A stretch of 64,000 bases of DNA from Amphiscolops sp. MND2022 (lineage: Eukaryota): contig OZ076419.1 of the NCBI GenBank assembly GCA_964187785.1, forward strand, positions 7,254,001 to 7,318,000, read 5' to 3'. Positions 5,647 through 64,000 of this stretch are shown in pieces. How positions within the stretch are numbered: position 1 is the stretch's first letter; each line of letters begins with the position of its first letter. The notes under the pieces were generated by a model. The model did no database searches and was not told the origin of the DNA. It was given only the letters and a program-made list of their open reading frames with translations. The position numbers and the translations under genes are program-made.

Positions 5647-6153
5647 TTAACGAACAATCAATAATTCACTTTTATTTTCTTTATAAACAATTTTACTAGA
5701 GTTAAAACAATTATTATCTATAACTTTCATAAAAGCTACACCTTTCTTCAATTCACATAAAATTTTTACATATTTGTCAACTAAAAACTTTGCACAAGTT
5801 TTATCAATATCATTCAAAATTTGATCAACATCAATTATCCATTCCGTTTCATCTTCTGTCTCTGCAATATTGATTTTATTATTATACACTCCTTTATTTT
5901 TAGTATAATCTAACACATCTAATTTAATTGATTTACAAAAATATTCTTCTTCAATTTCACAATCAGAAAACTCATTATAACATATATTATCAGTTTTACA
6001 TCTTTTTACAAATTCTATAGGTTGCCGAGTAATAGGAGAAGTCTTAGATTTCTTCATCCACTCTTTCAACAATGTTTCTTCATACATATAACCATCATTA
6101 CGAATAACAGCATGTCTAACTCCTATTTGGTTGATTGGACAAATTGGATTCAT
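5647..6153 (-). CDS. U-box domain protein (putative E3 ubiquitin ligase), 168 aa, in the Polinton
   Basis: N-terminus ICPINQIGVRHAVIRNDGYMYEETLLKEWMKKSKTSPITRQPI follows the U-box consensus (CPIT.E.M.DPV...DG.TYER..I..W......SP.TR.PL). ORF is intact. Confidence 0.8.
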   Translation of the reverse strand: MNPICPINQIGVRHAVIRNDGYMYEETLLKEWMKKSKTSPITRQPIEFVKRCKTDNICYNEFSDCEIEEEYFCKSIKLDVLDYTKNKGVYNNKINIAETEDETEWIIDVDQILNDIDKTCAKFLVDKYVKILCELKKGVAFMKVIDNNCFNSSKIVYKENKSELLIVR

Positions 6154-6173
6154 TTTAATTATGAAATATGTTT

Positions 6174-6960
6174 TTAATTATTGAATGCATATGCATTATT
6201 AAACTGCAATCGATAATCTAATTCATTTAATTTATTACCTTTACTAAGATTGTCTTCTTTTAAAAGAGGTTGCGTGTTTTTCCAGTTGAATGCTTCTAAC
6301 AATTCATCATCATTACTAACATCAAATGACGAAATAGGCTTTACATGATGAACATGAATGTTGTTCCAATTCATTACTTCTGTCATTTGGTACTCGATCC
6401 AGCGTTTATATGTTTTAATATCAATTCCTAAAATTTCCTTGGTTTGAAAAGACTTTGACTTACCATCTAGAGCGCAATTATTTCGTCTTCTTGTATTGTC
6501 TATCAGTTTTACATATTCATCAGTTTGACGTCCATTTCGCATATAATCATTTATCTTTTCTCTATTCTTTTGAAAAAATTTTGTGCTGTACTCTTTAAGT
6601 TTGTCTGAATTTTCCACACGATATGCTTTCATGTATTCGCTTTTCTTTTTTTAATTTTTCTGTACATAATCTTTATCATAATCTCTCTTTTTTCTATGTT
6701 TTTCCTTCGATATTTGATTCTCTCTTCTTTATTCTCAACATAATTTTTTCTTCCTTTTTCTGTCAAACATTTCTTTCTGTCAAACTGTTTTTCATTCGAT
6801 ATTTAATTCTCTCTTCTTTATTCTCATCATAATATTTTCTTCCTTTTTCTGTCAAACATTTCCTACATTCTTTTCTGAACCTATTTTGTTCTTTTCTAGA
6901 ATAAACACTTGATAAACCTTTATCTACTTCGCAGACTGAACTTTTTTGTTTTTGTTCTTC
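6174..6960 (-). pseudogene. HNH / endonuclease VII-like nuclease with charged N-terminal region, 5' part disrupted
   Basis: C-terminus MNWNNIHVHHVKPISSFDVSNDDELLEAFNWKNTQPLLKEDNLSKGNK matches HIDH..P...F.......CF...NLQPL...NL.KG nucleases. The N-terminal part has RKECRKC and a ~68-bp direct duplication (6706-6773 and 6795-6862). Confidence 0.75.
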
Positions 6961-7057
6961 ACTCAGTCAATAAAAACTTTTTAATTGAAATAATTTTACA
7001 CAATATAGTAAGGTAACATCTGATTCAATTCGTTTGGAGGATGTCGTTTCAGCTGAT

Positions 7058-10000
7058 TTAAATTCGCCTGGAACTCTTTAAATTGTTTTGTCTTCTCTTC
7101 ACACTCTTTACATATACTTTCACCACATTTGTTACAAAATCTATCTCTAGTTGGAATAACAACACCTCAAAATATTTCTTCCAAGATAAAGGAAAGTTTC
7201 CACTAACCTTAATACCTTCTTGCATCTCAAAGTATTTCTTCGAATCCAACAACCTATTCACATCACCAAAACCTTTAAAAGTTTTTATCTCTTCAGCAAC
7301 TCCATATTCATTAACATTTAAACAATATTTTATTTTTGGTGCTAAAAAGAATCCGAAGAAAATTCCACCACCAAAATCTGAAACATCGTTTTTACCTTGA
7401 CCTAAATTACTTCCAACATATCCAGTTGAATTCAAAATGTCCCATTGTTTCTTTTCAATATACAAACTATCAGTATCTTGGTGAAATACATTATTTGTTT
7501 TAAACCCATCTATAACTTCAACAAAGTTATTCATAATTCTTTTGCTTTTACTCAGAAAAAACGCTCCTAATTGTGAATGCATAGTGTTTTTGTCATCAAC
7601 TGGAGTATCAACACCCTCATCAATAGATAGTTGAACTATATAATCACCATTTGGCAATTTCCAAGAATCTTTAACTCTTTCATCATACTCTATTTTCATC
7701 CAATTCTCCGTTTTACAACAAAACTCATCTTCAATATCTCTACGAATAGTTTGCCCATGTATGCTGTTCATATTCGGTTTGACCATTTCTTGTAGGATAT
7801 TATTACCTTCCGTTTTAAATTTCAATCTTAAATCAAACAAGTTTTTATTGAACTCTCTAAAAGGTGATACTGTGAAGTTTTCTCTATAAATTACACCTTC
7901 CATAAACTTCTATAACTTTTCCACCAACTCTTACAATTTCTCGAATGTCAACACTTGTTAGAACATCAACAATACATCCATTTCTCAACCTATTGACTTC
8001 AACTTTCTTCACTTCTTCCTCCCTAACAGAAATGTGTTGCAGAATAATATCTTGTGAATTGAAACATTTAATTTTTAGAATTTCTGATTTTGTAAACGTT
8101 TTCGTTTTGAACTGATTAACAATTTCATCATTCATTTCTGATGTAAAAGCATATACAGTTTCAATTTTTGGATAAACAGATGTCTCATCATACATAGCAC
8201 TTGGATATAAACTCGTTGAATCGAAAGCCACTAACAAATCATCACGAATAAGTGTTTGAAGTTTCTTTGATATATCCAATTCAGATAATTTTTCGTTAAT
8301 GTATTTCTCTTTGACTTTTTGTTTAACTTGTCTATAATCTATATAATTCGATAAAGATTCAGTTTCATATTTATTTTTAAACTCTAATATATTTGGAGTA
8401 ACCTTTTTTTATTTCATATTTATTACCATTAACTTTTAACTCATCACTAATAGCTTCAAACTCTTTGTTAGAGTTTTGTGATTCTTATGATTGATTGAAT
8501 GCTCCTACTTTTCCTCCCTTGATTGATTGTCTAACAAAATGTCTCATGTGTTTGTCAGCATATGCAGAAATTGTTTGATCATCTACACACCGAGAAGACA
8601 TAAAATGTTTCCACCCTAGAGAAGGTAGTGATAAACAATCATTCATTCCAAATCCAGTGATTGAAGACATATTCATTGCATATCTCGCATATATGAACGC
8701 TAAAGACAAAATATCCATTTTAAAACACGGTTCCCACTCACTTCGTTTAGATTCCCACGTGTCTTCATAAATTTCCTTATGATCCATTTCTTGCTTAAAC
8801 AAGAGAAGATTGTACTTTGTAAGTTTCACCTAGTTTTCCTAATGAACTTTTCATATGATTCATACTTCATGTGAAAGTAAGCTATTGTGGTTCTCCTTTT
8901 GACTTGATTTAACATTCACCATTCCATTAAAAATCTTCAAACTATTTATTCCTTTACCATTTTTAACTAGGTTAATAAAATTTTACTCCCTTCAGGTAAG
9001 GTATTGAAAATAATCCAAGTGTCAAACCCAGAACCATTATGAGCGATTAATTTTGAATCATTTTCGGCTATATATTCTTCTCCATTTCTAATAAATTTCT
9101 TTGGTTCACCTTTAAGTAATCGCAATCGTTCAAACTATTCAGTTATACAGTTTTCACCTTCAAAAAGTCTTGCATCATTCAAACATTTATCAATTTCATC
9201 TTGAGTCAAATCACGATTCCATTTTGAAGCTAATTGTGAAACGGGATAGAAACCAATAGCGTAGGGGACTGCTCTGTCTTTGTTGTATGTTTCAATGTCA
9301 TAAACACATACATTGTTTAATTGGCTTTCTATAGTATTTGGTTTGAAATTGTATTCTACATATTTATTTACAAAATAACAATTTACAAAATTATTAACTA
9401 ATTTAAAGTTGACTTGAAGTTCTTCGACTGCTTTCTTTAGGGAATCACCCCAAATACAACAGAAGTGATTGTTATGTAAATACAAACATTTTTTTCGTTC
9501 TTTAACACTTCTGGGCAAAACTTCTTTTCCATTAAAATATTCTATTTCAATTCCATTTTTCTTAACAAAAGGTTGAATTCTTGCAAGTGTCATAACATTC
9601 TTTCTTCTATCACCTTCACTAATGAAGTCTAAATATTGTTGAGTATAATCATTTCCGGTTAGATAATTAATACATTTAACAAAACAATTATTTCCAGTTA
9701 GAATATAGCAGTTGGTTCCGAAGTATTCTTGAATGTTGTACAGATGATTGCTTGCTCTACCATAATTACTTCGCTTTAAGGGTTTGAAATCAAGTTGAGG
9801 AAGTTGAAAAGCATCACCCTCAAAAACTACATCTCCTCCATCATATTTTTCATCAATTTTTTCAATGTAAGATTCGAAGTCATTAATATTCTTGAAACGC
9901 ATGTTAGTTTTCTTTTTGATTCCGTTTATTGTCATTTCACCAACGAGTTCAAATCCACGGTTTCCATCATTTAATTTCTCGCGTATTTCATAAATCTTTA

Positions 10001-10114
10001 ACCCCTGATGTTTGACCTGTCGGCTTCTTCTAATTCAAAAAATCTACCTACATCTATATCTTCAACATCAACGTCACTAGACTGCCTCTTTGAGTTTCGT
10101 TCTTTGGCTCTCAT
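7058..10114 (-). pseudogene. polB: Protein-primed family B DNA polymerase (pPolB), frameshifted
   Basis: Exo I VYDIET, Exo II IAHNGSGFDTWI (~9050), polymerase motifs AFDSTSLYPSAM, K...NS.HGQTI, HQDTDSLY and FLAPKIKY across ORFs 9135-9935, 8485-8829, 7884-8279 and 7058-7903. ATG at 10114 follows a TAATAA motif. Confidence 0.93.
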
Positions 10115-10475
10115 TTATTAGGAAACTATTACTTGAAATGATTTTTACATCTTCATCAATTTTAAGAATGGTCCGTATAAATTTCCTTAATTCTTCAGGA
10201 CTTTTTTTCAATCAAATCATTCAGTTCAGTCATTTAACAAGTATAAATATATTGAGTATCATCTGTTTGTTTAATTTTTTAAAAAATATTTTTTTGTAAT
10301 TGTTACAACTCTTTAAATGTTGGTGTCATAGTAATTGGAATTAACAAAAAAAGTTAAACAATTTTCCATCCCTAAACAGATATTCGAATCAGGGTAGTCA
10401 AAATTAAAGTCTGTGTTATTAACAAGTTCAACAAAACTTTAATATTTTTCACTAGTAAAAATTATATATCCGTCA

Positions 10476-10724
10476 CTAATTACTTGAAACTGAAACTTTT
10501 ACTATGGTTAATTCACATGAATCTATGTTCTGCCTTTTATGAGGAATATATTCATCATCGCTTTCATCTTCTGAAACATCGCTTTCATCTTCAGAAACAT
10601 CACAATCATCTATGAAGTCTTCATCTGAGGTATGTACATTTTCGGCTGACGAAATATCACTGTCTGAGTAAATTGTTTCATCATCTGAGAAATCAGATTC
10701 AGTATCGGAGTGGAAGTCCGTCAT
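10476..10724 (-). CDS. Small highly acidic (D/E/S-rich) Polinton protein, 82 aa
   Basis: Intact ORF preceded by CTATAATAAATG. No known domain. Confidence 0.6.
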   Translation of the reverse strand: MTDFHSDTESDFSDDETIYSDSDISSAENVHTSDEDFIDDCDVSEDESDVSEDESDDEYIPHKRQNIDSCELTIVKVSVSSN

Positions 10725-11049
10725 TTATTATAGAAAAAAATTGAATAGTGACATTAAGTTTTTCTCCTTTCGTAGCAGTTAGAGCAGTAGCAATTAAATC
10801 ATAATAGTTCATATTTGCATAATAGATATCTGATACCATCCACTTCATCATTCTAATTGCATCGTTTCCAGCTCTATGAATTCCTTTTGAATTTTGGGAG
10901 AAATAATCAGTTTCAAAGTCTTCAGGCATCTCATCAAACTTTTGTAAAATCCTTGCTATAACAATCAACTTTTTCAGTTTAAGATATGTTAAAGCAGTCG
11001 CAAGCAGATCAAAGTGAGTGGCTGATGGAATTAATGACTCAACTTCCAT
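10699..11049 (-). CDS. Polinton accessory ORF with an internal repeat, 116 aa
   Basis: HFDLLATALTYLKLKKL and YYDLIATALTATKGEKL are two copies of one motif. Confidence 0.5.
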   Translation of the reverse strand: MEVESLIPSATHFDLLATALTYLKLKKLIVIARILQKFDEMPEDFETDYFSQNSKGIHRAGNDAIRMMKWMVSDIYYANMNYYDLIATALTATKGEKLNVTIQFFSIINDGLPLRY

Positions 11050-11081
11050 ACATATACTGATTATTTTTGGTGTTGCATACG

Positions 11082-11504
11082 TTAATCGGTTAGTGATACA
11101 AGCATTCTGTTTGCTTGTAGTTTAGTTAATTGCTGTTTCGTTTTATCAATAACAATGTTACACGAAAGACATACGAATTCTGTAGCATATTCTAAAAGTA
11201 AGTTTCTACCACATTTCATGCACATTGACGTGTTTCTAAGAATGAAATTTTTTTCTGCATCAAAACCTATGTAGTCTGGGTCTGTGTCTGTTTCGGTTGT
11301 TGTTTTTTTAGAATCAACTAAAACAAGAGAACCATCATCAAGTTCAATGACAGTTTTGTTTTTATCTTGTTTAACATTACTAATAGCTTCATTTCTTGTC
11401 TTCAGAGATTTGGGTGCAACTGTCTCTCTAAAAACTTTACCTTCTTGAATTATGTTTTTATCGTTTTTGCATTCAGTATAAAAATTATTATTCAGGTACT
11501 TCAT
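11082..11504 (-). CDS. Polinton accessory ORF with C-terminal Zn ribbon, 140 aa
   Basis: CMKC-x13-CLSC. Preceded by CTATAATAAATG. Confidence 0.55.
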   Translation of the reverse strand: MKYLNNNFYTECKNDKNIIQEGKVFRETVAPKSLKTRNEAISNVKQDKNKTVIELDDGSLVLVDSKKTTTETDTDPDYIGFDAEKNFILRNTSMCMKCGRNLLLEYATEFVCLSCNIVIDKTKQQLTKLQANRMLVSLTD

Positions 11505-11575
11505 TTATTATAGATTAATTATTTGAAATGAATTTTCAATTTTTGCATTACAACTTCATTTTCAGCAAGTGTTAG

Positions 11576-11926
11576 TTAACTCTTCTTCAATAAGGCTTCG
11601 TCAAAGCGTTTAGGTAAAGAGTCAAAAAGATAATTTGGAATAGTGTCATCAATTATTTCTGTAATTGTATGAAGCTTATAACTCCAGTTTATTGAATCAC
11701 TTTTTGAAAAAATATTTCTTGTGCCAGCAGTTCTGACTAAATCACCTAATTTATATTTTGGTTTTCGTTTTGTTCTTTTGTCTTGTAGAGTTGTGTTTAC
11801 TCCACTTTCATTAGACTTTTTCGATGGCTGAATTGGCGACATCTTAGTTGAGCTGTAGATTTTGTTGTTGTACTTAGCTGTAATTGTTGAAAGTTCATCT
11901 ATCCAGTTAGCATTTCCTTTTTCAAA
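11576..11926 (-). pseudogene. Polinton retroviral-like integrase, C-terminal part
   Basis: NWIDELSTITAKYNNKIYSSTKMSP...KYKLGDLVR...NIFSKSDSINWSYKLHTITEI matches the Polinton integrase tail (W...L..LV..YN...HS...M.P; KF.VGD.VRI....IF.KG...NW). Confidence 0.85.
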
Positions 11927-13280
11927 TGGAGGAGAATGAAGTAGTCGAATTCCGTGGGCTGAAGAGTACTTTATTGGCGGGTTTCCTTAGCACTGACAAA
12001 CAGAAATGATTCGCACTTGAAATGGATAATTCGCCCACAATAATATGCAACAAAACCGTGCATCCTACAATAAAACAAAACGTTTGTGTCATACTTGACA
12101 ACTGGGATTTGGAATTTCTTGAAGTCAACTCGGTCGATGCTTCTATGCTTTTCCAAAGTCGATTGGAAATAGTATATGCGCGCGGAGTACAAGAGACGGA
12201 GGATCTTTGGGTAGAAATATACGTTCAGAAATGCAAGATAACCATCTCAGAGAGCAATTGAAATTGTCACTCATTTCTAACGTGGTGTGGTGAGTATGGT
12301 GTTAGGAGTCGGAGGTGTAGGGGTGCATGTGGAGCGAGCAGGCGGAGTGGTTTACCTGCATCGATGCGCAAAAAATGGAAGTAATGGTGATCGAAAACAC
12401 CTTTTACACCGAAGACGTAGCAGTACGCCTAGGTGTGGACGGAAACTCTGAAATAACATACATGCATCCGATTACACGATTTTTCTATACTAACTACACA
12501 ATGACTGAATGCAACCCTATTCATCCCAATTTACTGAAGTTCGCAAACGGTACGTGGATAACATACGGGAAAAAAAAGAAAGAGCCAGAGTGGAACCAAC
12601 ACCAATTTTCCATGATACTAGACGTGAAATGAGACCCCACGAGTTCGTAGGGCTAAAAGAAAACGGACTTTTCACGATGGAGGATCTGTGGAGGAGTAGC
12701 AAAGCATGGGCATTGAAGCACAGTCGAACTACAGTCACAGGACGGGAAGTTTACTTAGGTCCACGAGGAGCATACGGCCATGCAGGATACTTTCATCTGA
12801 ATTTGCCAAGTAGACAGCTGTGTTTCAGCTGGAGCCTTCTCAAGTGTTTTGAGAACGTAAAAAGAGAAACGTAGTTTGTATGGTGGATAGCGAGAGAAAT
12901 CGCGCTATCTATGTTGACTTTGATGCTTTTCGGTACGCTTTTCAGATTTTTATACAAATTGTTTTTCATGATCCAACTTAAGAAGCTAGGAACAACCACC
13001 AGGTTCGTTTTACAACCTTTCAACCCGTTTTACGAGTATAGTAAGTACCTTGCTGAAGTCAAGAGTCTTAAGGGAGAGCATGCTGAAGAAGAGCAATCGA
13101 ATATAGATGAAAACGCAGTGTAAATTAGCAGCGTATAAATTTTCCAAATTAAAATTGAAAACATGCTGGTTGAATTTTTTTGATCAGAGATGGACGGAGG
13201 ACGAGTAAATGAATACGTCTACTACCTTCCTGAACTGTATCCAATTAAAATGGAGGTATCTCCAGGACTTTACAGAGTGC
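11927..13280 (+). repeat. Direct copy of 15088-16442 (3' half of env plus start of accessory gene A)
   Basis: Near-identical sequence at an offset of ~3161-3162 bp. The ORF track shows paired ORFs (12022/15183, 12911/16073, 13190/16352). Confidence 0.95.
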
Positions 13281-14280
13281 GGGAAGGAAATGCAATGAAT
13301 GAGCGAACCAACAGGACATTGGAGGAGAGCATTACTAAATATGTGAGTGAACATCAGCATGAATGGAAAAACTACCTGCAATTGGTAACGATGGCCTACC
13401 GTTCCTCGGTACACGCAGTAACGAAGTATAGTCCTGCATACGTTATTTTTGGGACACCACTAAAACTTCCAATTGATTGGTTGTACGAGACGCGTCATAC
13501 AGAGTTAAATCCAACACCTAGTGATTTCATATTTAAAACAAGGCGTGAGCTACGGAAAGCACATCATCAGATCAGGATTCATATGGAAGAACAAACTAGA
13601 CAGAAAACCCTCTTTGATTACCGCGCACCACGTACAAAGAAGGACAGCAAGTTCTTGTCTTTTTCTCAACAGTAAAAAAAGGAGAAACAAAAAAGTTCAC
13701 ATCTTTCTACAAAGGACCTTACACAATTGTCGAAATTAATAACGACCTTAATTTTCGGGTTTGTCACAATGACACAAAGAAAATTAATGAGGTGCATTAC
13801 GATAGATTGAAACAAAATAGGAATAGGGAGCGAACATGTGTCAAAATTACCGAAACTAGGAGACAAAGTGATTTGGAGGAAAAATCATTCATCGAAAAAG
13901 TTGACGACGACTTCATTGAAATTGAAGTCGAGCAAACAAACGAACCGAAAAGGGCGGAACAGAGAGAAAATTTTCAGAATGAAAACCCTGAGACAGCTCA
14001 TCCACACAATGATGCCATAACCGTGGAAGAAGATCCTAACGAGCGACCGTGTAGCGAGTCTTCAAAGAAGGACGGAAGTAGCAGTCAACGAGATAACTTC
14101 TTGACCGAACCAATTAAACAAAAAAAAATCAGAACAAAAAAAACGGAAAACATTCCACAACCTAGAGAAAAGAGCACGCGTATCCAATCCGTACCGAAAC
14201 GCTTTGCTGACTACTTTGTGTATAACCCCGATGACGACAATTTCGATACAGATGACGTTCTTACTTCAGGAAGCAAGTGA
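13281..14280 (+). pseudogene. Gypsy integrase C-terminus with GPY/F module
   Basis: NERTNRTLEESITKYV...WKNYLQLVTMAYRSSVHAVTKYSPAYVIFG (integrase core end), then FYKGPYTIVEI...VHYDRLKQ (GPY) and an acidic tail ending VPKRFADY. Confidence 0.9.
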
Positions 14281-14286
14281 AGCACA

Positions 14287-16285
14287 ATGAGAGGAAACAA
14301 ACCTAACAAAGAGGGTTAACACGTACTAGTGTTCTGCGCGTTCATGGCAATCTGTTGGAATATCACAATATGCGAAGAAATAAGAATAGTGGCATATGAC
14401 TTCGAGCAAATTGTGACAACATCAGTGTTTTCTCTTCCTGAACAAGAAACTGGATGTTCTCGAGAGTCGAGAACAAGAAAGAAAGTAACGAAGGCTACAA
14501 TTATTTTTCATGGAAGCAATGCGGAAATTGAGTTGAGGTTTTGTCACTATCAAGGGTCATATACAGTACAACACATAAAAAATCCAATGTTTACGATGAC
14601 GGATTATACTTACACCAAGAATCAAAAATTCTACCTACGTTTTACCTCTTGTCGATAGAAAAGTGTCAGTCTATATGGATTAGAGAAGGATTCAAGTTAC
14701 CGGGTTTCGGTAACCAAGAATTCCAACTTAGCACTGCTGAATTAAACAAGGTGACAAGTAACAGGGCAGAAACCACGGAAACGTTTGACTACTCAGCAGT
14801 GTTTATGAAAAGAAGAGGGCGTGGAATTGGCTATGCATATCCAGGAGAGTGGACCACACCTCTTGGAGAAACAATCGTTGGTTCTGTTATGATCAACGCG
14901 CGTCTAGCAATAGGCAAAGTTTACGCTAGAAAAAGAATGCACATGGACGAGTTGCTATTGACTTAGAAAGACCCCGTCGGTAATGAACAATCAAGGATTG
15001 AAATTGAGGAGGACTTTGAACATGATTTTGTGGTTTACTTGACAAAAAATACAACGGAATGTAAATGGTCAAAACTGGTTACCATAGTGGAGGAGAATGA
15101 AGTAGTCGAATTCCGTGGGCTGAAGAGTACTTTACTGGCGGGTTTCCTTAGCACTGACAAACAGAAATGATTCGCACTTGAAATGGATAATTCGCCCACA
15201 ATAATATGCAACAAAACCGTGCATCCTACAATAATACAAAACGTTTATGTCATACTTGACAACTGGGATTTGGAATTTCTTGGAGTCAATTCGGTCGATG
15301 CTTCTTTGCTTTTCCAAAGTCGATTGGAAATAGTATATGCGCGCGGAGTACAAGAGACGGAGGATCTTTGGGTAGAAATAGACGTTCAGAAATGCAAGAT
15401 AACCATCTCAGAGAGCAATTGAAATTGTCACTCAATTCTAACGTGGTGTGGTCAGTATGGTGTTAGGAGTCGGAGGTGTAGGGGTGCATGTGGAGCGAGC
15501 AGGCGGAGTGGTTTACCTGCATCGATGCGCAAAAAATGGAAGTAATGGTGATCGAAAGCACCTTTTACTCTGAAGACGTAGCAGTACGCCTAGGTGTAGA
15601 CTGAAACTCTGAAATAACATACATGCATCCGAATACACGATTTTTCTATACTAACTACACAATGACTGAATGCAGCCCTATTTATCCCAATTTACTGAAG
15701 TTGGCAAACGGTACGTGGATACCATACGGGAAAAAAATAGAAAGAGCCAGAGTGGAACCAACACCAATTTTCCATGATACTAGACGTGAAATGAGACCCC
15801 ACGAGTTCGTAGGGCTCAAAGAAAACGGACTTTTCACGATGGAGGATCTGTGGAGGAGTAGCAAAGCATGGGCATATAAGCACAGTCGAACTACAGTCAC
15901 AGGACGGGAAGTTTACTTAGGTCCACGATGAGCATACGGCCATGCAGGGTACTTTCATCTGAATTTGCCAAGTAGACAGCTGTGTTTCAGCTGGAGCCTT
16001 CTCAAGTGTTTTGAGAACGTAAAAAGAGAAACGTAGTTTGTACGGTGGATAGCGAGAGAAATCGCGCTATCTATGTTGACTTTGATGCTTTTCGGTACGC
16101 TTTTCAGATTTTTATACAAATTGTTTTTCATGATCCAAATTAAGAAGCTAGGAACAACCACCAGGTTCGTTTTACAACCTTTCAACCCGTTTTACGAGTA
16201 TAGTAAGTACCTTGCTGAAGTCAAGAGTCTTAAGGGAGAGCATGCTGAAGAAGAGCAATCGAATATAGATGAAAACGCAGTGTAA
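14287..16285 (+). pseudogene. env: env-like class III fusion glycoprotein (chuvirus G / herpesvirus gB-like), ~665 codons, several stops and frameshifts
   Basis: Signal-like HVLVFCAFMAICWNITIC, then IVAYD.EQIVTTSVFSL...C, then GVHVERAGGVVYLHRCAK-MEVMV, MHPNTRFFYTNYTMTECSPIYPNLLKLANGTW and GLKENGLFTMEDL. A C-terminal hydrophobic segment IALSMLTLMLFGTLFRFLYKLFFMI follows. Motif order matches chuvirus-type glycoproteins as I recall them. Confidence 0.75.
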
Positions 16286-16351
16286 ATTAGCAGCGTATAA
16301 ATTTTCCAAATTAAAATTGAAAACATGCTGGTTGAACTTTTTTGATCAGAG

Positions 16352-17063
16352 ATGGACGGAGGACGAGTAAATGAACACGTCTACTACCTTCCTGAACTGT
16401 ATCCAATTAAAACGGAGGTATCTCCAGGACTTTACAGAGTGCAGGGATGTATTTCCGGGCATCGGAAAGTTGCCACCGAAGACACGCTCGCTGCCGCTAA
16501 CATCAAAAACAGGGCAGATGTTACTAATCCACAACTGATCGGGCTTCGGCAAGGACTGGATATGGCGAAATTAAAAACTGAATCGTTGGAGGAACAACTC
16601 CAGTCCAGGGAGAAGCATATCAACGGGGAGCGAGAAGAGCAGCGGAGGAAAATTCTCGAACTTGAGTTCGACAACAGAGTGCAGCGAGAAAAAATACGAA
16701 GGCTGGGGGAAGATCTCGAGCGCCAAAAGATACTTGTGAAGAGTGAGAGAAACAAAGCCAGAGTAACGGAAAAACTTAATAGGGAGTTGAAACAAAGAAA
16801 ACCTCATCCAACGTCCGTTCACACCGTATGAGATTCTTTTCGTATAGGATGACGCAGACGTTGAGGATATCAAACGTATATACCAAAAATTAGCTGCCTT
16901 AACTCATCCTAATCCTGATGCTGGCGGATGTGAGGAACACTTCAAAACAATCCATAGGGCGTATCTTATTCTGAGTAACCAGAATGCAAGAAACATATAC
17001 GACACATTCGGGTTAGAGAGGGCAGAAGAAGAGTTAACCCGGAGAGCTAATTGGAGTGACTAA
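16352..17063 (+). pseudogene. Accessory gene A: N-domain, coiled coil and DnaJ J-domain (frameshift near 16800, one stop)
   Basis: ORF 16352-16831 is coiled-coil-rich. The overlapping frame from 16824 reads PYEILFV*DDADVEDIKRIYQKLAALTHPNPDAGGCEEHFKTIHRAYLILSNQNARNIYDTFG, a J-domain with HPNPD at 16905-16919. Confidence 0.8.
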
Positions 17064-17377
17064 CTGAAATGAACTGTTAACTTTATAATTTTTTTCGTAC
17101 TTTTGATTTTAAAAAAATAATGATAATCATATGAAAAAAACTGAGACACAAAGGTCTCTAGGTGGAAATAACCTAAAAAGGGGGCAATTAAAGTGTGTTC
17201 ACTTTAAAAAAAAAAGGCAAGGTGAGAGTCACCTGTTGATTGAAAAACTTGATAATGAACATGTCGAGTTCGACAAATTCCATGTCTAGCGGGTATCGCT
17301 AGGCACCGTCTCAATTGTTTTAGGTGCAGTAATTATACAATTATACTCAAGTGTGGCGCTGATTTTGGTGTTTAAGC

Positions 17378-18168
17378 ATGCATCCTTCAGCTGTGGACAT
17401 TGTCTACTACCTGCCTGAGGTTTTTGTGGTGAAGTCTCAGATGTCATCTGGAGTGTTCCGGATGGAAGGCCTAGTCAGCAAAACTCGGAAAGTTGCGGCA
17501 GCTGACACCCTCTTTCCAGTGAGGCTGGTTAGGAGAGCTGAGATGAACGACGAAGGACTGTCAATACTGCGAAACAAATATGCAGGACTGATGACGGAAC
17601 GGCAATCTTTTGTTTTTCAACTGGATGCTCTCAAAGCTGAAATCCTCAGTTGGCAGAAGAAAGCAGACATCATTGACGGCCAACTACAACTCTGGAAGGG
17701 GGCAACAAATCAGCGGCAACAATTCTTGACTGAGTACAAGGAAACGTCGAAGAAATTGAGGCGACAAGTGGACAGCTTGAAGCTGACTATGCCGCAGCGA
17801 TAACTGCAATAGAGGAGAGTCGCAGTTGAGAACAAAACTTGGTGGAGGAGCTGCAGTTGTAGGGCAAAGCTATCAATGGTCTCCAGAGAGAACTGGAAAC
17901 CAGAGAAATCTTCAAAATGGGCGACAAGCTGACGCTATACGACCAACTTATGGTGTCGTCCAATGTTTCAGTCGAGACCATTGCAAAAAGATTCAAAAAA
18001 CTCAGCCTGTTCTGCCACCCAGATGATGGAGGCTCCTATGACGTGTTTGTTCGGCTTCAGATGGCACATCGGATACTAAGTGACCCCGAGGCAAGACTCC
18101 GATACGAAGCTGAGGGATGTGAGGCAGCAGGGGTGTTTCTCAGTTTTAAAAACAACAGCAAAGACTAA
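17378..18168 (+). pseudogene. Accessory gene B, paralogue of A: N-domain, coiled coil and J-domain with intact HPD
   Basis: VYYLPEVFVVKSQMSSGVFRMEGLVSKTRKVAAADTL aligns with gene A VYYLPELYPIKTEVSPGLYRVQGCISGHRKVATEDTL. The J-domain reads LYDQLMVS...IAKRFKKLSLFCHPDDGGSYDVFVRLQMAHRILSDPEARLRYE (HPD at 18016-18024). Confidence 0.85.
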
Positions 18169-18230: not shown

Positions 18231-18659
18231 AGGGGGGAGCAATATAGGAAACTTAAAAAAGATTAAACTTCAAACGTTGGGACAGATTTACGATGAGAAA
18301 CAAATTATTGTTATCAGACATATTCGAATAAAGGTTGTCGGGGATCGACAATCCTAGGTTAAGCAACTGTCGGGGTTCGACAGTAAGATATCCAAAGTAA
18401 GTAAGAAACCGTCGGGTTTAGACGGACTGTATTGAGAAAATATAAAAACCTTCAGATATCGGCGGATTTCGCCAGACTATCATAAAGATAAAGGGTATTT
18501 AGGCAATATGAGAAGTTGGCCAATTGCTTTTCGCCTACTGTCAAAATTCCTAGAGCTATATCTCACATTGAATACATTCATAAATTCAAATAAACATTTC
18601 TTCTATCGGACATAGAATTAATTCTTCTATAACCACGTTTTCGTATTGAGGACGTTACA
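18231..18659 (+). repeat. Polypurine tract (18231-18242) and putative 3' LTR (18243-18659)
   Basis: AGGGGGGAGCAA is followed by TATAGG... and the segment ends ...GACGTTACA. It contains TATAAAA (18441) and AATAAA (~18588). No partner LTR in the window, and the 5' end reads TA rather than TG. Confidence 0.6.
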
Positions 18660-18699: not shown

Positions 18700-21600
18700 C
18701 GCTCAGGTTACTAGAAAAGACTAGATTATAGAATAGATGTTTCACAATCTAAGGCCGAAGCCTTTGGTGATTGGCTCTTTGCTGTTTGGGTTCCCCTTCC
18801 ATCGTCATTTCGTATTTCAAATTTCTCCAGGTGTTGTCCAATTTCGCTTTAAAAACGGCAAGGGTTCCTGCCGACGTGACATCATCTGGCAGGCTATTCC
18901 AGTCATTGGCTGCTCTTACAGTGAAAAAATTTCCTCTTGTTGATGCTCTCGATGGCTGCACCACAAGTTTTCTTTGATTTCCTCTTGTGATTCTGTCATT
19001 TTCCATCAGCATCCCTCCAGTGACTCTCTTATCATACACTCCATTGAGTATCTTGTAAACTTCAATCATCCTACCCCGTTTCCTCCTGAAGTCCAGGGTG
19101 GGTAGGTCTAGTTTCATCAATCGTTGTTCATAAGGGAGAGATGCGAGAGAAGGGAGGAGTCTTGTCGCTCGTCTCTGGGCATTTTCGAGGTTACTTCTGT
19201 GTTTTTGGAAATGTGGATGCCATGCTTGGTTACAATATTCCAAGTGGGTTCTGACAAGCGTCTTAATTAGTACACTCAGTGACTGGCAGTTCAATTTCAT
19301 GAAACATTTTTTGATAATAGCAAGCATTGAATTCGCTTTTTTTTATTTTTTCAGCAATATGCAAGTCAAAATTTAGTTTGTGATCAGTTAGTACACCCAA
19401 GTCTTTTTCACATCTAACATTTTCCAACATCTTTGTTGTGTTCATAAAGTAATGTCTCTCAGTGGAGTCTTTCTTCGTTGTGAGGGTCATTTTCATGCAT
19501 TTTTCTCATTGAATTGAAGTAAACTGCTACTCGACCAGCTTCCCAGCCTTCGGAGGTCATCTTGGAGTATTTTCTGATCTGCGTCTGAGTGTATTTCCCT
19601 GTAGAGCTTCGCGTCATCGGCAAACAGGTAAAATTCTGACTCCACAGCTTCCGGCAAAAAATTTATGTAGATCGTGACTACTACCCTCTGCTGTCTCCCG
19701 GAGAGGAACGCTTTTATCCAGTTTAGAGTTTTTCCATTAACCCCATTTTGTTCGAGAAGAGCTATGAGTCTTCTGTGTGAGACGCTGTCAAACGCTTTCC
19801 GAAAATCGAGGTACACTACATCTACTTCATCCTTATTGTCCAATGCCAAAGTCCACTGATCAAATATTTTCAGAAGTTGAAGAAGCGTTGATCTTTTTGA
19901 CAAGAAGCCACATTGTTTATCACTCAAGATGTCATTATCTGTGAGAAATGTCAGTAGTCTCTTTCCGATAATTCTTTCCATTAGTTTGCAGGGTATTGAG
20001 GTCAGGCTCACTGGACGACAGTTGGTTGCCTCTGATTAATAAATCAGAGGCAACCAACTATCGTCCAGTGAGCCTGACCTCAATCGCCTGCAAACTAATG
20101 GAAAGAATTATCGGAAAAAGAATAATTTGTTTTGACTTGGAAATCGGCACTATGTTAGCCCGCAACCAGTCATCGGGTAGTATTGCAGTATTCCCGGATT
20201 CCGTCATGATTTGAAATAGGAGCGGTGCTATTCCAGACCCTATTTCTTTCAGTATCCTTGGGGAGATGTTTTCCACTCCAGCAGATTTTGCTGTATTAAG
20301 GGCATTAATTTCTTCAAGCACCTCTTTTTCAGTGAAAGTTATGTTATCTTCCATACATTTGTGCGTGGTGTTTATTTGCCAGAGTCCGGGTCCTTCATAT
20401 ACAAAAACGGATTTGAAAAACAACGAGAGTTCTTCTGCTTTCTCCAAATCCGTTTGTGTGAAGCTTCCATCTTCTCGTCTGATTGCTGGAATCGTCTCTC
20501 TTCGTTTTGTTTTTTGGCTAACATAACTCCAAAATGTTTTGGGATTGGACTTTAGGCTATTTGTTACTTCCTGTTCCATTTCTTGGGCAAGATTTCTGGT
20601 TTCTTTCCTCAACGAATTCCTGCTTGCTTTGTACTTTTCGTGATCGTCGGGGGATTTGCTATTAACAAAATTCTTTCAGAGTCGTTTTTTCTTTCTCACT
20701 AGCTCCAGGATGTCCCTGTTAGCGGTATATCGTCTATTTTTGTTCGACTTAATGCTCAATTCCGGGATGAATTTTTTCTTAGCTTTAGTGATTTTGCTTT
20801 TTAGGAAAAGCCATTTCTCATTGACATCTAGCTCATCCGGGATGGTTGTTCCTCTCAAGACTAAATCAACTAGTGATGGTTTATCGTCGCCACGGATACG
20901 TGTTGGTCTGATGGTGTGCTGTGTCAGGTAAGAATCAGCTAAAGCATCAAGAAAGTTGTTCTCCTTGCTTCCTACTACTGTGTTAGAGGTGTTGGATTTC
21001 CAATCTATTTTTGGAAGATTGAGATCCCCGGTCATCAGGAAATTGCTTCTCTGTGATTCTTTCCTGATAAAGTCGTTGATCATGATATTATTTTCGGTAG
21101 AGGAGTTTGGACTACGGTAAACAGATGCCAGGAACAATGTTTCCATTTGTAGTTTGATAGAGACATAGAGTAACTCGTCATTTTCCTTTTTGTGTCAATG
21201 GGGCGGTAGTCAAGATCACCTCTCGAAAAGAGTGACATTCCTCTCCCTTTGTCTGTGAGTTTCATGTTTAGGGGTTCCATGTTGTACGATGGGATCTGGA
21301 CTGTTACAGGATTGAAGTCTGTTTTCGAGTATTTTGGTTTAGCCTCAGAGATTGCAATAACATGCGGTAAAGTACTTCGATTATAGATTGTTTGTAGGAG
21401 CTCCAGCATTTTGTCTTTTGTTAAGGTGTCGGCGTTGTTGGACATAATGTTGAGGTTCATCTCTTTTCCTTATTTCATTGCGTTCTCTTTTTGTTTTTTA
21501 CAATGGTTGTTCCTTGGACGATGTGCATGAAATCTCCAGTCTCTTGTTCGGTTAGGTTTTTTGCCGCTGGATCAAATTTCTGACTTCTTCTCTCTCTTTC

Positions 21601-22590
21601 ATTGAACGATCCGGACTGATTCAAAGATTCCGTAATTCATCTGGTGCATTCTTCAACTTTCGCAGGTTTTTCATAACAGTTTCCACCTCGCTGCTATTGT
21701 TAAGTGTAACCATTAGCTGTCGGTGATGTTCAGTCAACGGTGTGTCTTTTTCTTGCGAAGTGTCCGTCTTTTTGCCGAGACGAGTTGTCTTCTCAACAAC
21801 ATCATAGCTAAGCTCCAACTCCTCTAGGAAACTTCGAACATGGTTTTTGTCTCCTTCTTTGCGGTCTTCCTGACTTCCAGTGGGTTGGGTGGGCGGAAGT
21901 AGGTCGAAGGAACGGGATCGAAAATCAGAGTTAGTCCTCAGGTCGACATACCAAATTTTAGAATGGGATCGAAAAAACTCGGATCGAAATTCTTTTAACG
22001 TAGTCAGATATGTTCACATACCCCTAGTGCCCTGAATGCAGGAGCGAAGCGAAGCGGAGCGACGTGCCATATGGCCATGCCTCAAGGTTGCTACTTGGCG
22101 AAGGGAGCGAAGCGACCGAGCCATACAACAAATACGATAAAATTCGACCGCATTCCATTCAATCCCTGCAATTCAATCAAAAGGTTCGACCTCTGTCCTT
22201 TCGACCCGGTAAATTCGACCTATTTACAGCCACCCCAGTGGATTGCTCTGCTGCTCTGTGTATGATGAAATTTTTCTTTCGTCTCTCCTCCTTTTCTTCT
22301 CCCTTACTTGCTCTGCGTTTGCCTCCAGGATTATGTCTTTCAATGGTTTGACGGGTATGTCTTCAGTTTTAGCCCATTCGTTCGCTTTCTGCGTTCTATT
22401 GGGACCGTTTACAAAGCAGTGGAAATCTTTCATCAGGGTTTTGACGCAGTTGATGGTTGTATCAAGATCCTTCCGTATCTGGTCCGTCTCTTCACTCCGC
22501 GGTTTATCATTCTTTTCATTGTTAATCAAGGTTGTCACTGCTATGCTGCATTTACTGCAGCACCAGAGGGCAGAGGGCTCTTTGTAAGAA
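18700..22590 (-). mobile_element. CR1-clade LINE, degraded and 5'-truncated: ORF1 (22590-21480) and ORF2 EN-RT (21460-18749)
   Basis: APE motifs (NADTL, VIAISEAKPK, SVYRSPNS, MTGDLNLP, LVDLVL) and RT motifs (NYRPVSLTS, VYLDFRKAFDSV, LFADDAKLY). CR1-type C-terminus RRKRGRMIEVYKIL...FFTVRAANDWNSLP. ORF1 NFIIHRAAEQ...TRLGKK is restored when the 21882-22236 insert is removed. The GVPQGS motif appears deleted. Confidence 0.92.
21882..22236. mobile_element. ~355-bp non-autonomous TIR element (second copy at 45880-46235; partial copy at 26348-26569)
   Basis: TIRs G-run-TGG...AAATAGGTCGAA / TTCGACCTATTT...CCA-C-run. Apparent 3-bp TSD (AGT here, TTG at 45877/46236), although microhomology blurs the boundary. 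Confidence 0.8.
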
Positions 22591-24033
22591 GTAAAAACAA
22601 CCTAAAAGAACAAAGTGTTGAGAACGAATGGATTTTTCATATGAACATAAGGTCTATCGACTACAATTTTGAAGAACTAGAAACGCATATAGATACCTTT
22701 CGTGAAAACAAACCGTCTATAATTTGCTTGTCCGAAACATGGATGACTGAATCCTCAGACAAAAATGCCTACGCACTAGAATCCTATGCACCTATGGAAT
22801 TTGATACTGGTTCAACAAGAAATGAAGGTGTTGCAATATATGTCCATGAATCTCTGGCATTTGAACTTTTGGAGCTTAACATACAGAAAGATTCTCTTCC
22901 TGATCTAAACTATACTGGAGTCAATTGTACCGCTAGGAATAAGGAAAAATTTACCGTTGTATGCTTATACAATTCGCCTTCCGTAAATAAACAGGATTTC
23001 TTGGATCAGTTTGAGTTACTTCTTGAGTCTCTTAGTCAAATTAAGAACTACTATCTAATAGGCGATATTAATATTGACCTCTTGGAATGCAACCGTGTTG
23101 CAGATAGGTATCTGAAATTGTTGAAAATTCATGGTTGCGCCCAAGGAATCGAAGAACCAACCCGTGTAACGCTTGACTCAGAATCGTTAATCGATCATAT
23201 AATCCATAATGACTACCAAAGACCTCTGGAATTTGGAGTTATCAAGACGTATATTACAGACCATTTTGCAACCTACGTTGATTTGGATATAAGTAAATCT
23301 AAATCCATTCGTTCTCAACATTTTATTAAGGATAGACCGTTTCTCTGGGACGGTAATGCAACAAATCTCTATCTAAATTACTTAAAACTTTGCCTGGAAC
23401 TTGTAGACTTAGGACAGGACATCAATGCATCTACTGAATCGTTTGCCAATGCAATATCGGAAGCAGTTAATGCTTTCACAGTTGAAAAACAATCAGAACA
23501 CCAAGATGCCGTAAGACCTTGGTTCACAAAGGAAGTAAAAAAAGCCTTAATTCAAAGAAATTGTAGTTTCCACAGATACAAGCGCTGTAAAAACTATTAG
23601 AACAAGCTACGCTACACAAGAGCTAGAAATAATGTGCACCAGCAGCTTCGTAAAAGCAAGCGCGAATACTACGATTCACGTCTGAATGGGCTTATCAATA
23701 ATCCTAAATGTTTCTACAAAGAACTAAACAAATTCACTGGTAAAGCAACAAAAAATTCCAACTTTGTTATCAAGAATGATAAAAATGAATTGATTACGGA
23801 TGATATTGTAGTGGCCGAATCGTTCAATGAAAAATTTTGTTTCCATCAGTAAAACCTTAGCTGCTTCAATTGATAATGTCCCATTCACGACTCATGGTAT
23901 AAAAACTAATGAAAAATCACTATTTTTTAATCCAGCTGATGGCACTGAGATTTCGAGTATTATAAAAAGTCTTAAGAACCATAAATCACCTGGTCTAGAT
24001 GGACTGACTGCAGAAATACTAAAAGTGAGTCAC
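22590..24033 (+). pseudogene. LINE (CR1/L2 group) ORF2 5' part: APE endonuclease and linker, copy 1
   Basis: FHMNIRS, ICLSETW, CLYNSP, IGDINIDLL, SLIDHI, TDHFA and KSPGLDGL. Interrupted at 24033 by a Gypsy LTR. Confidence 0.9.
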
Positions 24034-25554
24034 TGTCGCAACCCAGGAGTTGCGTTGGACCCGGTGTGCAGCACTAATTGAAGAAAACAGAACGTTCCTC
24101 TCCCCATCTCCTTTGAAAACTGTGAAACTTTCACTGAAAAAACTTGGTTTCGTTCATTTCTAATTCACTTTTTCTCTTTTGGAAGTCATGTAAATAATTT
24201 GTGTAATTTAAATTGAAACGGGTCCAGTTTTACTGTCTATTGAGAACTCATAATTGCATGAAACCCAGGCCAGAATAGAAAAACACTTGCTAATGAGCAA
24301 TACATTACGTAACATTGGTTTTCATTGAGCCCCATTAGTCTAAATACCATTTTGTGCTGATGACTATGCGGTACTATGCGGTCGAGCAGTACCGCATACT
24401 CGTCATTATGCGTTTTTGCCAATCTTATTATGCGGCATCCTACGGATCGAGGTTAGACGAATACTCGTCTTTATACGATTTTCATAGAAACACTATGCGA
24501 TATCCTGCGGATCGCGTGGTGACGCATACTCGTCACTATGCGGTTTCAGCAGGACCTTCTGAATAGAGTAGAAAGACGAAATAGTGCTAGTTGGAAACCA
24601 TTACAATTGCAGTTTAGACAGTATTTCGAGTAATTTCCAGGGTTTCCTAGTTCTTTCCTTGGATATACTCTAAACGTGGAGTAATTTAGCTGATACTATA
24701 AATAGTATGACGTTACCCTGACGTAATCCTATTTTTACCTTTCTCTAAAAGTGACTACAGTGAAAAGGAGTGTCATGGTTTTTTTGTTGGAGCCATTTCA
24801 TTTTAAAAACTAGGAGGAACATCATTCAAATCTCGACCGTCGAATAGTGCAGTTGTTTTTTTCAGACATCTGTAAACTTCTTGATAATTTCGTGATATTT
24901 CCGAATCTTGTTATTTTTGAAAAAACAAGATAATTCAAATTCTTCCCCAAAAACCAAAATCCATTTTCACTCAAAACAACATGGGAAACAGACGCAATAG
25001 ACGTTCTAGAAAACTAGAAACACCTTCCCCAGACAGAGAAGTAGAAGTAACTCAGACAGGGACGCCCATTACGGGTAATGAAACTTTAACTTATGTTTTT
25101 ATTGTGGTTCAAAGAGATTTAGGTGAAGACAACTTAGAGAACCAGTTTACCGAACCTAGCCAAATAAGCAACGAGATCCAAGTATGGACTCAAATTATGG
25201 AACAAAAGAACAATGATAGAATTGAAAAGATGAGAGAAGAGATGGAAAATGAACTCGAAATGATTCTAAAGGAAATAAAGTCTAATAAGAGTGCATCAAC
25301 TGTGACAAACCCAGGGTCAGAAAATAACAAAAACAGAGACTCGCAACCATCGGGATCCAAAACAAATAGGTCTATAGGAGTTCACGCATCTAATAACGAG
25401 AATTCAGATTCTGAAAATGATGATTATGCTCTCAGAGCTTCCAAAATGAAAGACTTAAGACATCCTCCAAGACCAATATTTCACAATGAATTAGATATAG
25501 ATGTAAATATAAACCCAGAAGATGAGTCCGATGCAGAAGTAGAGGATTATCACA
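24034..25554 (+). repeat. Gypsy LTR, 1521 bp (duplicated copy of the 5' LTR)
   Basis: TGTCGCAAC...TTATCACA followed directly by the PBS TGGTGACAGGAG. Matches 28367-29889 and 42776-44297. Confidence 0.93.
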
Positions 25555-26347
25555 TGGTGACAGGAGCCAACCGACAACTCCATAGACAAAGCTCTCAGAA
25601 ACTAAATGACACAGTAGGATCCCACGCAGACCACAATTTGTCAAACTTGACAGTAAAACAACTTGACCCAGTTAACCAAATCGCTTTAGCAATAGAAAAA
25701 TTGGCGAACAAGAACCCTTCACAATCACTTTTTCACCCCAAAAACATTAACATTCAACGGGAAAAACGAGAAAAACGAGAAATTCGAATACTTCGAAGAC
25801 TTATTCCACACGACACTTCAAATGCAACCAAACCTAACAGAAGACTAAAAATTTAACTATTTTTATGCCCATCTCAGGGGTTTGGCACTCAAGACTTCAA
25901 GACTTTCAAGAATATACAACGAACCCCAAACACAACCTTAGAAGACATACTCAAAGTCTTTAGACGAAAATAAGTAAAACCGGAATCCAGTGCGTCAGCG
26001 AAGCACAGATTCAACAGACTCTCATTTGACCCAGAAAATCAGAAACTCCCAGATTTTCTAGAAGAACTTCAGGAGAGTGCCGAAAAAGCATTCGGGGAAA
26101 ACGCTCATCAAATGATAGAAAACTTACTATGCAAAAATGCAAAAATGCCTCCCCATCTTAAAAAGTCAATTAATCAAGCCTACCTTGAGAATGGCACATA
26201 CGACCAAATAGTCAAACATCTCGAAAGAGAGATGGAACTCAACGGTCTAGAGGCAGATGAACATCTCGTCAAAACCCAAATGACCGTCACTAAAAAGAAC
26301 AAAACACCGAAAAAACCAACAAAAAACCAAATGACAAAGCCAAAAAA
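24981..26347 (+). pseudogene. gag: Truncated gag, copy in the tandem duplication
   Basis: Same as 29313-30683; cut at the duplication junction. Confidence 0.85.
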
Positions 26348-26922
26348 CACATACCCCTAGTGCCCTGAATGCAGGAGCGAAGCGAAGCGGAGCGACGTGC
26401 CATATGGCCATGCCTCAAGGTTGCTACTTGGCGAAGGGAGCGAAGCGACCGAGCCATACAACAAATACGATAAAATTCGACCGCATTCCATTCAATCCCT
26501 GCAATTCAATCAAAAGGTTCGACCTCTGTCCTTTCGACCCGGTAAATTCGACCTATTTACAGCCACCCCAGTGGATTGCTCTGCTGCTCTGTGTATGATG
26601 AAGTTTTTCTTTCGTCTCTCCTCCTTTACTTCTCCCTTACTTGCTCTGCGTTTGCCTCCAGGATTATGTCTTTCAATGGTTTGACGGGTATGTCTTCAGT
26701 TTTAGCCCATTCGTTCGCTTTCTGCGTTCTATTGGGACCGTTTACAAAGCAGTGGAAATCTTTCATCAGGGTTTTGACGCAGTTGATGGTTGTATCAAGA
26801 TCCTTCCGTATCTGGTCCGTCTCTTCACTCCGCGGTTTATCATTCTTTTCATTTTTAATCAAGGTTGTCACTGCTATGCTGCATTTACTGCAGCACCAGA
26901 GGGCAGAGGGCTCTTTGTAAGA

Positions 26923-28366
26923 AGTAAAAACAACCTAAAAGAACAAAGTGTTGAGAACGAATGGATTTTTCATATGAACATAAGGTCTATCGACTACAAT
27001 TTTGAAGAACTAGAAACGCATATAGATACCTTTCGTGAAAACAAACCGTCTATAATTTGCTTGTCCGAAACATGGATGACTGAATCCTCAGACAAAAATG
27101 CCTACGCACTAGAATCCTATGCACCTATGGAATTTGATACTGGTTCAACAAGAAATGAAGGTGTTGCAATATATGTCCATGAATCTCTGGCATTTGAACT
27201 TTTGGAGCTTAACATACAGAAAGATTCTCTTCCTGATCTAAACTATACTGGAGTCAATTGTACCGCTAGGAGTAAGGAAAAATTTACCGTTGTATGCTTA
27301 TACAATTCGCCTTCCGTAAATAAACAGGATTTCTTGGATCAGTTTGAGTTACTTCTTGAGTCTCTTAGTCAAATTAAGAACTACTATCTAATAGGCGATA
27401 TTAATATTGACCTCTTGGAATGCAACCGTGTTGCAGATAGGTATCTGAAATTGTTGGAAATTCATGGTTGCGCCCAAGGAATCGAAGAACCAACCCGTGT
27501 AACGCTTGACTCAGAATCGTTAATCGATCATATAATCCATAATGACTACCAAAGACCTCTGGAATTTGGAGTTATCAAGACGTATATTACAGACCATTTT
27601 GCAACCTACGTTGATTTGGATATAAGTAAATCTAAATCCATTCGTTCTCAACATTTTATTAAGGATAGACCGTTTCTCTGGGACGGTAATGCAACAAATC
27701 TCTATCTAAATTACTTAAAACTTTGCCTGGAACTTGTAGACTTAGGACAGGACATCAATGCATCTACTGAATCGTTTGCCAATGCAATATCGGAAGCAGT
27801 TAATGCTTTCACAGTTGAAAAACAATCAGAACACCAAGATGCCGTAAGACCTTGGTTCACAAAGGAAGTAAAAAAAGCCTTAATTCAAAGACATTGTAGT
27901 TTCCACAGATACAAGCGCTGTAAAAACTATTAGAACAAGCTACGCTACACAAGAGCTAGAAATAATGTGCACCAGCTGCTTCGTAAAAGCAAGCGCGAAT
28001 ACTACGATTCACGTCTGAATGGGCTTATCAATAATCCTAAATGTTTCTACAAAGAACTAAACAAATTCACTGGTAAAGCAACAAAAAATTCCAACTTTGT
28101 TATCAAGAATGATAAAAATGAATTGATTACGGATGATATTGTTGTGGCCGAATCGTTCAATGAAAAAGTTTGTTTCCATCAGTAAAACCTTAGCTGCTTC
28201 AATTGATAATGTCCCATTCACGACTCATGGTATAAAAACTAATGAAAAATCACTATTTTTTAATCCAGCTGATGGCACTGAGATTTCGAGTATTATAAAA
28301 AGTCTTAAGAACCATAAATCACCTGGTCTAGATGGACTGACTGCAGAAATACTAAAAGTGAGTCAC
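26923..28366 (+). pseudogene. LINE ORF2 5' part, copy 2 (continues at 44298)
   Basis: Same motifs as copy 1. AEILKVSH (ends 28366) rejoins SHDVIVEKLTHLVNESL at 44298 via the GTCAC duplication. Confidence 0.9.
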
Positions 28367-63699: not shown

Positions 63700-64000
63700 C
63701 TCATTTATTTCGAAGGAATAGGAAAACCTTATTGATGAATGTCTTCAGTTGTGGTAATCCATATCTGTTTAGGTGTACACCATCCGATCGTAACACATTT
63801 TCGCACGACATGTTAGATGCCACACCGACATGTATGTATCGGTAGGTTTTTCAGACAAAAGATTATTGAATTGGCACATGAAATTAAACGATGAATTTTT
63901 TCTGGGAATACCCATGACAAATACTCGAAATACCGAGTTCATGCATGTATTTCGCAATTGATTCTATGTGAACTTTAACTTCGCTGGGGCACATCTGTTG
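63700..64000 (-). pseudogene. SGNH hydrolase, copy 3, C-terminal part (5' end beyond the window)
   Basis: YMHELGISSICHGYSQ...RSDGVHLNRY. Confidence 0.75.

Follow-up and report, generated by a model that had tools for sequence, protein, structure and literature searches.

The window, that is, the whole 64 kb stretch of DNA analysed here, carries on its forward strand two paralogous genes, gene A (16352..17063) and gene B (17378..18168). They lie between the remnant of an env gene (14287..16285) and a polypurine tract (18231..18239), followed by a 3' LTR (18243..18659) that begins TATAG and finishes TTACA. The first-pass annotation had proposed this order from the letters alone, and it was borne out. 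The env gene is broken and of the gB or class III type (a Monjiviricetes-like fusion glycoprotein; the PF24664 match of the window piece, E 7.9e-6, is under the cut-off). Upstream of it, also on the forward strand, lies the broken 3' end of pol (13282..14280), which comprises the end of the integrase core and a p58 C-terminal domain (PF22938, E 1.7e-7) and matches the full elements described below. This is preceded by a local duplicate of the 3' part of env and the start of gene A (11927..13283, forward strand), fused to this integrase end and 98% identical to 15088-16445. Apart from the duplicate, no sequence of the same element was seen within the window upstream of the pol 3' end (13282), and its gag, protease, RT and 5' LTR are absent from the 64 kb. 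The reading frame of gene A is disrupted near 16820-16847, and that of gene B near 17800 and 17860. The window copy, consisting of integrase end, env, A, B and 3' LTR, is a dead fragment of an element. A PF17476 match on the A fragment of the window (E 0.046, far under the cut-off) was set aside as chance, the intact protein having no such match.

The surroundings of the fragment are rich in other repeats. It adjoins a stretch on the reverse strand (5650-11986) that by eye is a decayed Polinton-like element whose ORF pieces resemble DNA polymerase B, an integrase and a U-box; the U-box alone gave a Pfam match, a weak one (E 0.002). On the other side lies what by eye is a decayed CR1/L2-type LINE (18749-21469, reverse strand) with endonuclease and RT pieces and an inverted junction at 19955-20124. 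A dispersed repeat of about 350 bp (21887-22235) is 91-96% identical across many of the genomic loci examined. Large tandem duplications occupy 22000-30200 and 53200-63900 (units of about 4.3 kb, and of 1.9-3.1 kb), and a 65-bp repeat family is also present.

The genome (1.07 Gb, in chromosome-scale contigs with animal-type genes) was searched at the DNA and protein levels, which gave at least 49, at least 142 and at least 155 matches. From the match lists, 38 neighbourhoods were picked and examined, the window included. The complete order LTR-gag-RT-IN-env-A-B-LTR was found in 12 of the 38, and both A and B were present in 29. A 3' LTR lay no more than 1.8 kb away in 31 neighbourhoods, env was upstream in 27, and 37 had one or the other. 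Full elements are about 10.5 kb long in subfamily 1, to which the window copy belongs, and about 11.2 kb in subfamily 2. In these other copies the LTR pairs are 84-98% identical (mostly 93-98%), a primer-binding site directly follows the 5' LTR, and 4-bp target-site duplications were recognized by eye, exact in three copies and with one mismatch in two more. The domain order is gag followed by PR-RT-RH-IN, the Pfam order having been read on the pol of a related clade. By its LTRs, primer-binding site, polypurine tract, target-site duplications and domain order, the element is a Ty3/gypsy LTR retroelement (Metaviridae). In two other copies the env match to PF24664 was over the cut-off (57 and 63 bits, E 1e-15 to 2e-17); judged from this profile, env is class III fusogen-like and follows pol, as in gB-type env-carrying errantiviruses in the wide sense. 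A and B are accessory genes between the env and the 3' LTR of gag-pol-env elements. The linkage between LTRs was thus confirmed, and the suggestion of a gag-pol element with a class III env held for the full copies elsewhere in the genome, the window copy itself being devoid of gag-pol.

Most genomic copies of A and B are broken. Five fragments contain B without gag-pol-env in the flanks examined, and all five end in the LTR of the element. The idea that these B and LTR-only copies are subgenomic retrocopies was dropped: three of the five begin at runs of N, and their breakpoints differ. The env-A-B-LTR end is often tandemly duplicated (C3:59.89M, C1:1.18M, C4:81.99M, C1:62.75M and C10:27.55M), through either assembly artefact or local recombination.

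In naturally open copies of both subfamilies, A and B are each a single ORF of about 234-263 residues, with the N-domain, coiled coil and J-domain build that had been predicted for intact copies; the N-terminal motif common to the two genes is conserved in all relatives aligned. The two proteins are about 31-35% identical to each other. A structural model of A (mean pLDDT 79, pTM 0.35) shows a small beta domain, a helix of 90 residues and a J-domain. The helix spans residues 68-157, with pLDDT >90 over most of its length, and corresponds to the coiled coil noticed at the outset.

The C-terminal pieces of both window genes match DnaJ (PF00226; 45 bits, E ~1e-11), as the first reading of the sequence had suggested. 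The profile aligns along the entire J-domain of yeast Sis1, including the basic residues of helix II, the HPD and the next Phe (E 4e-17), and the model places the HPD between helices II and III, as in known J-domains; yeast Sis1 and human DNAJA1 were the best matches by both profile and fold. HPD was present in 59 of 84 rows of aligned, decayed copies (A1 15/20, B1 16/22, A2 12/18, B2 16/24; the digit denotes the subfamily), tandem copies being counted separately and four rows being misaligned. It was also present in every divergent J-containing relative placed in the tree. Gene B of the window has the motif, as had been stated; the HPNPD that had been taken as the motif of A was seen in 1 of the 20 subfamily-1 A rows, that of the window copy, where the motif is disrupted. 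HPNPD is a private insertion or decay in the HPD loop of the window A gene. The captured part of DnaJ is the J-domain only, without the G/F region or client-binding domains. A class A or B DnaJ layout (N-terminal J, G/F, client domains) does not apply, since the J-domain stands C-terminally after a barrel and a coiled coil, and by build A and B are class C J proteins.

The N-domain had no sequence match in Pfam or the PDB. Modelled alone from 16 sequences, it gave pLDDT 82.6, the first strand being missing from the model. The top 50 fold matches were mostly KOW, Tudor, PWWP and SH3 chains, which tie at Z 3-4 so that the fold class is not separable; the best match was weak (Z 4.0, rmsd 1.9 over 41 residues) and none reached Z 5. 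The model suggests a small SH3-like barrel, a fold that names no function. The alignment of the domain shows conserved aromatic residues. No membrane or signal segment was found by hydropathy in any of 10 proteins (maximum 1.12).

Candidate splice sites were examined in the full elements. A pyrimidine tract followed by AG lies about 17 nt 5' of env and, in A1, A2 and B2, 0-2 nt 5' of the start codon. By a crude score, these acceptor-like sites rank 1-19 among the 379-808 AG sites per element, those of env at 5-8 and those of gene A at 2-19; the site of B1 is weak (rank 29-57). In the window, on the forward strand, the predicted acceptor of gene A (16335..16349) is 2 nt 5' of the start codon and is kept in both subfamilies, the site before env ends at 14269, and a consensus-like donor is predicted within the 3' LTR (18397). 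The LTR donor fits the consensus in subfamily 1, and none is clear in subfamily 2. A and B are each predicted to be expressed from a spliced subgenomic RNA of their own, and the same may hold for env. In the accessible text of 10.1101/2023.08.03.551782 and PMC2585583, splicing of the env RNA is the rule in Drosophila errantiviruses. Contigs from four low-cover sequencing runs, one of them an RNA library from seawater, contained pieces 95-99% alike that cover parts of env, A, B and the LTR; no splice joint appeared in these contigs, which are too sparse for a conclusion on expression.

Selection was assessed by counting substitutions column by column between subfamilies 1 and 2. Silent sites are saturated (pS 0.73-1.0). 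The pN values are 0.19-0.25 for the J-domains, 0.21-0.26 for the N-domains, 0.29-0.51 for the coiled coils, 0.29 for env and 0.08 for gag/RT. At the protein level, identities in the two genes are 72% and 63% for the J-domains, 71% and 62% for the N-domains, and 51% and 29% for the coiled coils, compared with 55% for env, 80% for IN, 88% for RT and 89% for gag. A dN/dS ratio was computable for parts of B only (J 0.075, coiled coil 0.30). Among variants common to several subfamily-1 copies, pN/pS was 0.51 for A and 0.37 for B, similar to the 0.43-0.55 of gag/pol/env, and singletons in this comparison gave 0.74-0.94. Singleton variants as a whole lay at 0.65-1.0, near neutral, as expected for dead copies. 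The shared variants of subfamily 2 (silent/replacement 1/3 for A and 4/13 for B) are too few to judge selection. Saturated silent sites with a kept protein, together with the shared-variant ratios, indicate that A and B were functional in the replicating lineage; both have been under purifying selection in the past, in answer to the check on selection that had been proposed. The duplication that gave A and B is older than the split of the subfamilies.

When the genome was searched with DnaJ, other multicopy intronless J ORFs were found (more than 20 such matches), and all 10 that were examined are located 3' of env, in elements of another, related Gypsy clade (C4:16.67M, C12:50.97M, C2:92.79M, C2:33.33M and others). 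The RT-RH of this clade is about 40-49% identical to that of the A/B clade, compared with about 30% for other nearby Gypsy elements, and the start of the primer-binding site is common to the two clades. Its env is F-type (Baculo_F E 1.7e-5 in one family), and we refer to it as the F clade. Its LTRs are 98.9-99.9% identical, hence very young, and a weak macro-domain match lies inside pol (E 0.005). After env comes a single gene, encoding a barrel-like N-terminus, a coiled coil, a J-domain with HPD and a Cys-rich tail; this gene, too, is conserved over saturated silent sites (pS 0.82, J region 60% identical). Joining the predicted LTR donor, which ends in AT, to predicted acceptors that start with G would yield an in-frame AUG, for the J gene in three families and for env in two. 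A splice-created AUG is reported for the Drosophila gypsy env in the accessible part of PMC2585583. The presence of a J gene in the same slot beside a different type of env indicates that its role does not depend on any one fusogen, and a class III env is thus not essential to the system.

A common origin of the N-domains of the two clades was not supported. Profile comparison gave a probability of 0.2%, below that of shuffled controls (best 4.2%), and comparison of the full-length proteins aligned the J-domains only; both N-domains look like small barrels by eye, with sequence homology undetected. Nor did a single capture of the J-domain find support in the tree (87 columns, with an unresolved backbone), where the J-domains of the two clades form separate supported groups (100/96 and 98/90) that are not joined. 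Two captures appear likelier than one. No host donor emerged, none of 17 sampled host J-domains grouping with either clade. A divergent coiled-coil and J ORF (locus L148 / L168:1956-2816, reverse strand) groups with the J-domains of the F clade.

Relatives of both types of J gene come from ENA or Logan; for the F clade there are 37, at 27-99% identity. Intact proteins of the A/B family (P0085, P0087, P0090, P0105, P0244, P0007 and P0031; 29-64% identity) lie on short contigs from these sources. Some A/B-family database proteins have no close copy in the genome (best 89%, P0031), which indicates that the family reaches other individuals or species. In database protein P0126, J-domains flank Gypsy integrase fragments; it falls outside both clades, weakly placed beside the F clade, and may hint at J-bearing elements in another organism. 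No relatives were found in JGI metagenomes and IMG/VR. In the ESM Atlas the N-domain of A had no usable match and that of the F clade gave leads only (≤0.80).

A and B are a real, selected accessory-gene system of enveloped Ty3/gypsy elements. J-domains are obligate partners of Hsp70, and the domains joined to them choose the clients delivered to it. This partnership is also set out in the accessible text of PMC3486835. By its sequence features, each protein (barrel, coiled coil and J-domain, under selection and devoid of a membrane anchor) is very probably a functional Hsp70 adaptor, cytosolic or nuclear. Given such an adaptor, the chance that its target belongs to the host is about even. Our preferred reading, held tentatively and at somewhat less than even confidence, is that the products of these selected accessory genes are cytosolic adaptors bringing host Hsp70 to a host silencing or chromatin factor. 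Each protein would be translated from a spliced subgenomic RNA of its own; binding of the target would fall to the N-terminal barrel, the coiled coil would act as spacer or dimeriser, and the J-domain would trigger ATP hydrolysis by Hsp70 and thereby remodelling of the target complex, as with the polyomavirus large T antigen. Loading of Argonaute or PIWI proteins is a plausible point of attack. Hsp70 and Hsp90 load both, according to the accessible part of PMC11125864.

The adaptors might instead bring Hsp70 to the particle of the element itself, in Gag assembly, uncoating or release of the integration complex. Viruses often employ Hsp70 in assembly and uncoating. The same anatomy and evidence of selection would serve a particle role equally, and in both env clades the J genes accompany gag-pol, yet we regard such a role as possible rather than likely. 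Between subfamilies the N-domain, at 62-71% identity, drifts much more quickly than Gag (89%) and RT (88%), the gB and F clades have alignable Gag but N-domains without detectable homology, and, to our knowledge, Gypsy elements that are more distant lack a J gene as a rule and still replicate; none of these points is decisive. We favour a host target over the particle because the barrel resembles reader-type folds and drifts much faster than Gag, because there are two paralogs, because the system is independent of the type of env, and because Hsp70 and Hsp90 take part in Argonaute and PIWI loading.

A less probable role is direct action on Hsp70: the proteins would serve as its sink or would misdirect it, thereby starving small-RNA loading or altering the stress response, and the barrel would set location only. 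This would suit a J-domain captured without G/F or client-binding DnaJ domains, and, in the accessible texts, a phage J protein acts so on the heat-shock response (PMC3486835) and Hsp70 is linked to Argonaute loading (PMC11125864); a sink, however, needs neither two long-kept paralogs nor an N-domain conserved like the J-domain. That the proteins chaperone the folding or trafficking of Env seems very unlikely: the J genes are directly 3' of env in both clades, but the Env ectodomain folds inside the ER, whereas the proteins have neither signal peptide nor membrane segment, and unrelated F and gB envelopes each adjoin a J gene. Finally, A and B can hardly be passenger host pseudogenes or chance neighbours, despite the many broken copies and the five B-only fragments, as the protein is conserved over saturated silent sites, the 17 sampled host J-domains include no close match, and the B-only fragments end in the LTR of the element, three of them starting at runs of N; a processed host pseudogene in particular is contradicted on all its marks (a close host parent, evolution at neutral rates, independence from the element), with env or LTR in 37 of 38 neighbourhoods.

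Returning to host-directed adaptors, it is conceivable, if rather doubtful, that Gypsy elements took up J-domains repeatedly and independently, among them the gB and F clades, joined them to reader-type barrels, and thereby evolved an undescribed anti-silencing class of proteins that directs Hsp70 at PIWI/Argonaute or chromatin complexes and uses spliced RNAs as complex retroviruses do. Few invertebrate LTR-element accessory genes have an identifiable biochemical activity, and the conserved J-domain would supply one, Hsp70 recruitment. If the acceptor-like sites are real, two paralogs after env would give these five-gene elements an organisation resembling that of complex retroviruses. The apparently separate J-domain of a second clade, which has a different envelope, points to capture on more than one occasion, and hence to a recurring pressure on retroelements met by steering host chaperones; the partner of the barrel would name that pressure.

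The gene combination had been put forward as undescribed, and we found no description of it in the open literature, nor, in the open-access texts as far as accessible, a paper describing a J-domain in a retroelement: accessory 3' ORFs of LTR elements and virus J proteins are each known, and their combination after env was not found there. PMC9004415 names DNAJB9 just as a neighbouring gene, and PMC6338049 does not mention chaperones. As portrayed in the main text of PMC13524379, where DnaJ, J-domain and chaperone do not occur, env-carrying Ty3/gypsy elements (errantiviruses in the wide sense) have the same LTR-gag-pol-env and PR-RT-RH-IN orders and an HSV/gB-type or F-type env, the A/B clade being gB-type and the second clade F-type; unlike them, the A/B and F elements have extra genes after env. 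The accessible text of PMC5408684, in which DnaJ does not occur, describes LTR elements of bdelloid rotifers that likewise captured host-type domains (a DEDDy exonuclease and a GDSL esterase) as separate, non-env 3' ORFs, typically expressed via spliced messages. There ORF3 replaces env, whereas here env is retained and the J genes follow it as genes four and five. Like A and B, the J protein 057w of a T4-related phage gives a mobile element its own Hsp70 co-chaperone (PMC3486835, as far as accessible). The DnaJ proteins of giant viruses and phages are likewise co-chaperones of Hsp70 encoded by mobile elements; for both, the hosts are prokaryotic or large-DNA-virus hosts, and the matches lie in the J-domain only. 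In sequence and fold, the J-domain and the helix that follows it match yeast Sis1 and human DNAJA1 best, which are cytosolic J proteins of classes A and B; in genes A and B, however, the J-domain is C-terminal, and the G/F region, the zinc-finger region and the C-terminal client domain are missing. The polyomavirus T antigen joins a virus-encoded J-domain with HPD to a target-binding module. It belongs to a DNA virus, has its J-domain at the N-terminus and carries different partner modules, so that homology to A and B is claimed for the J fold only; by analogy, its union of J-domain and target-binding module may serve as the model for how A and B act.
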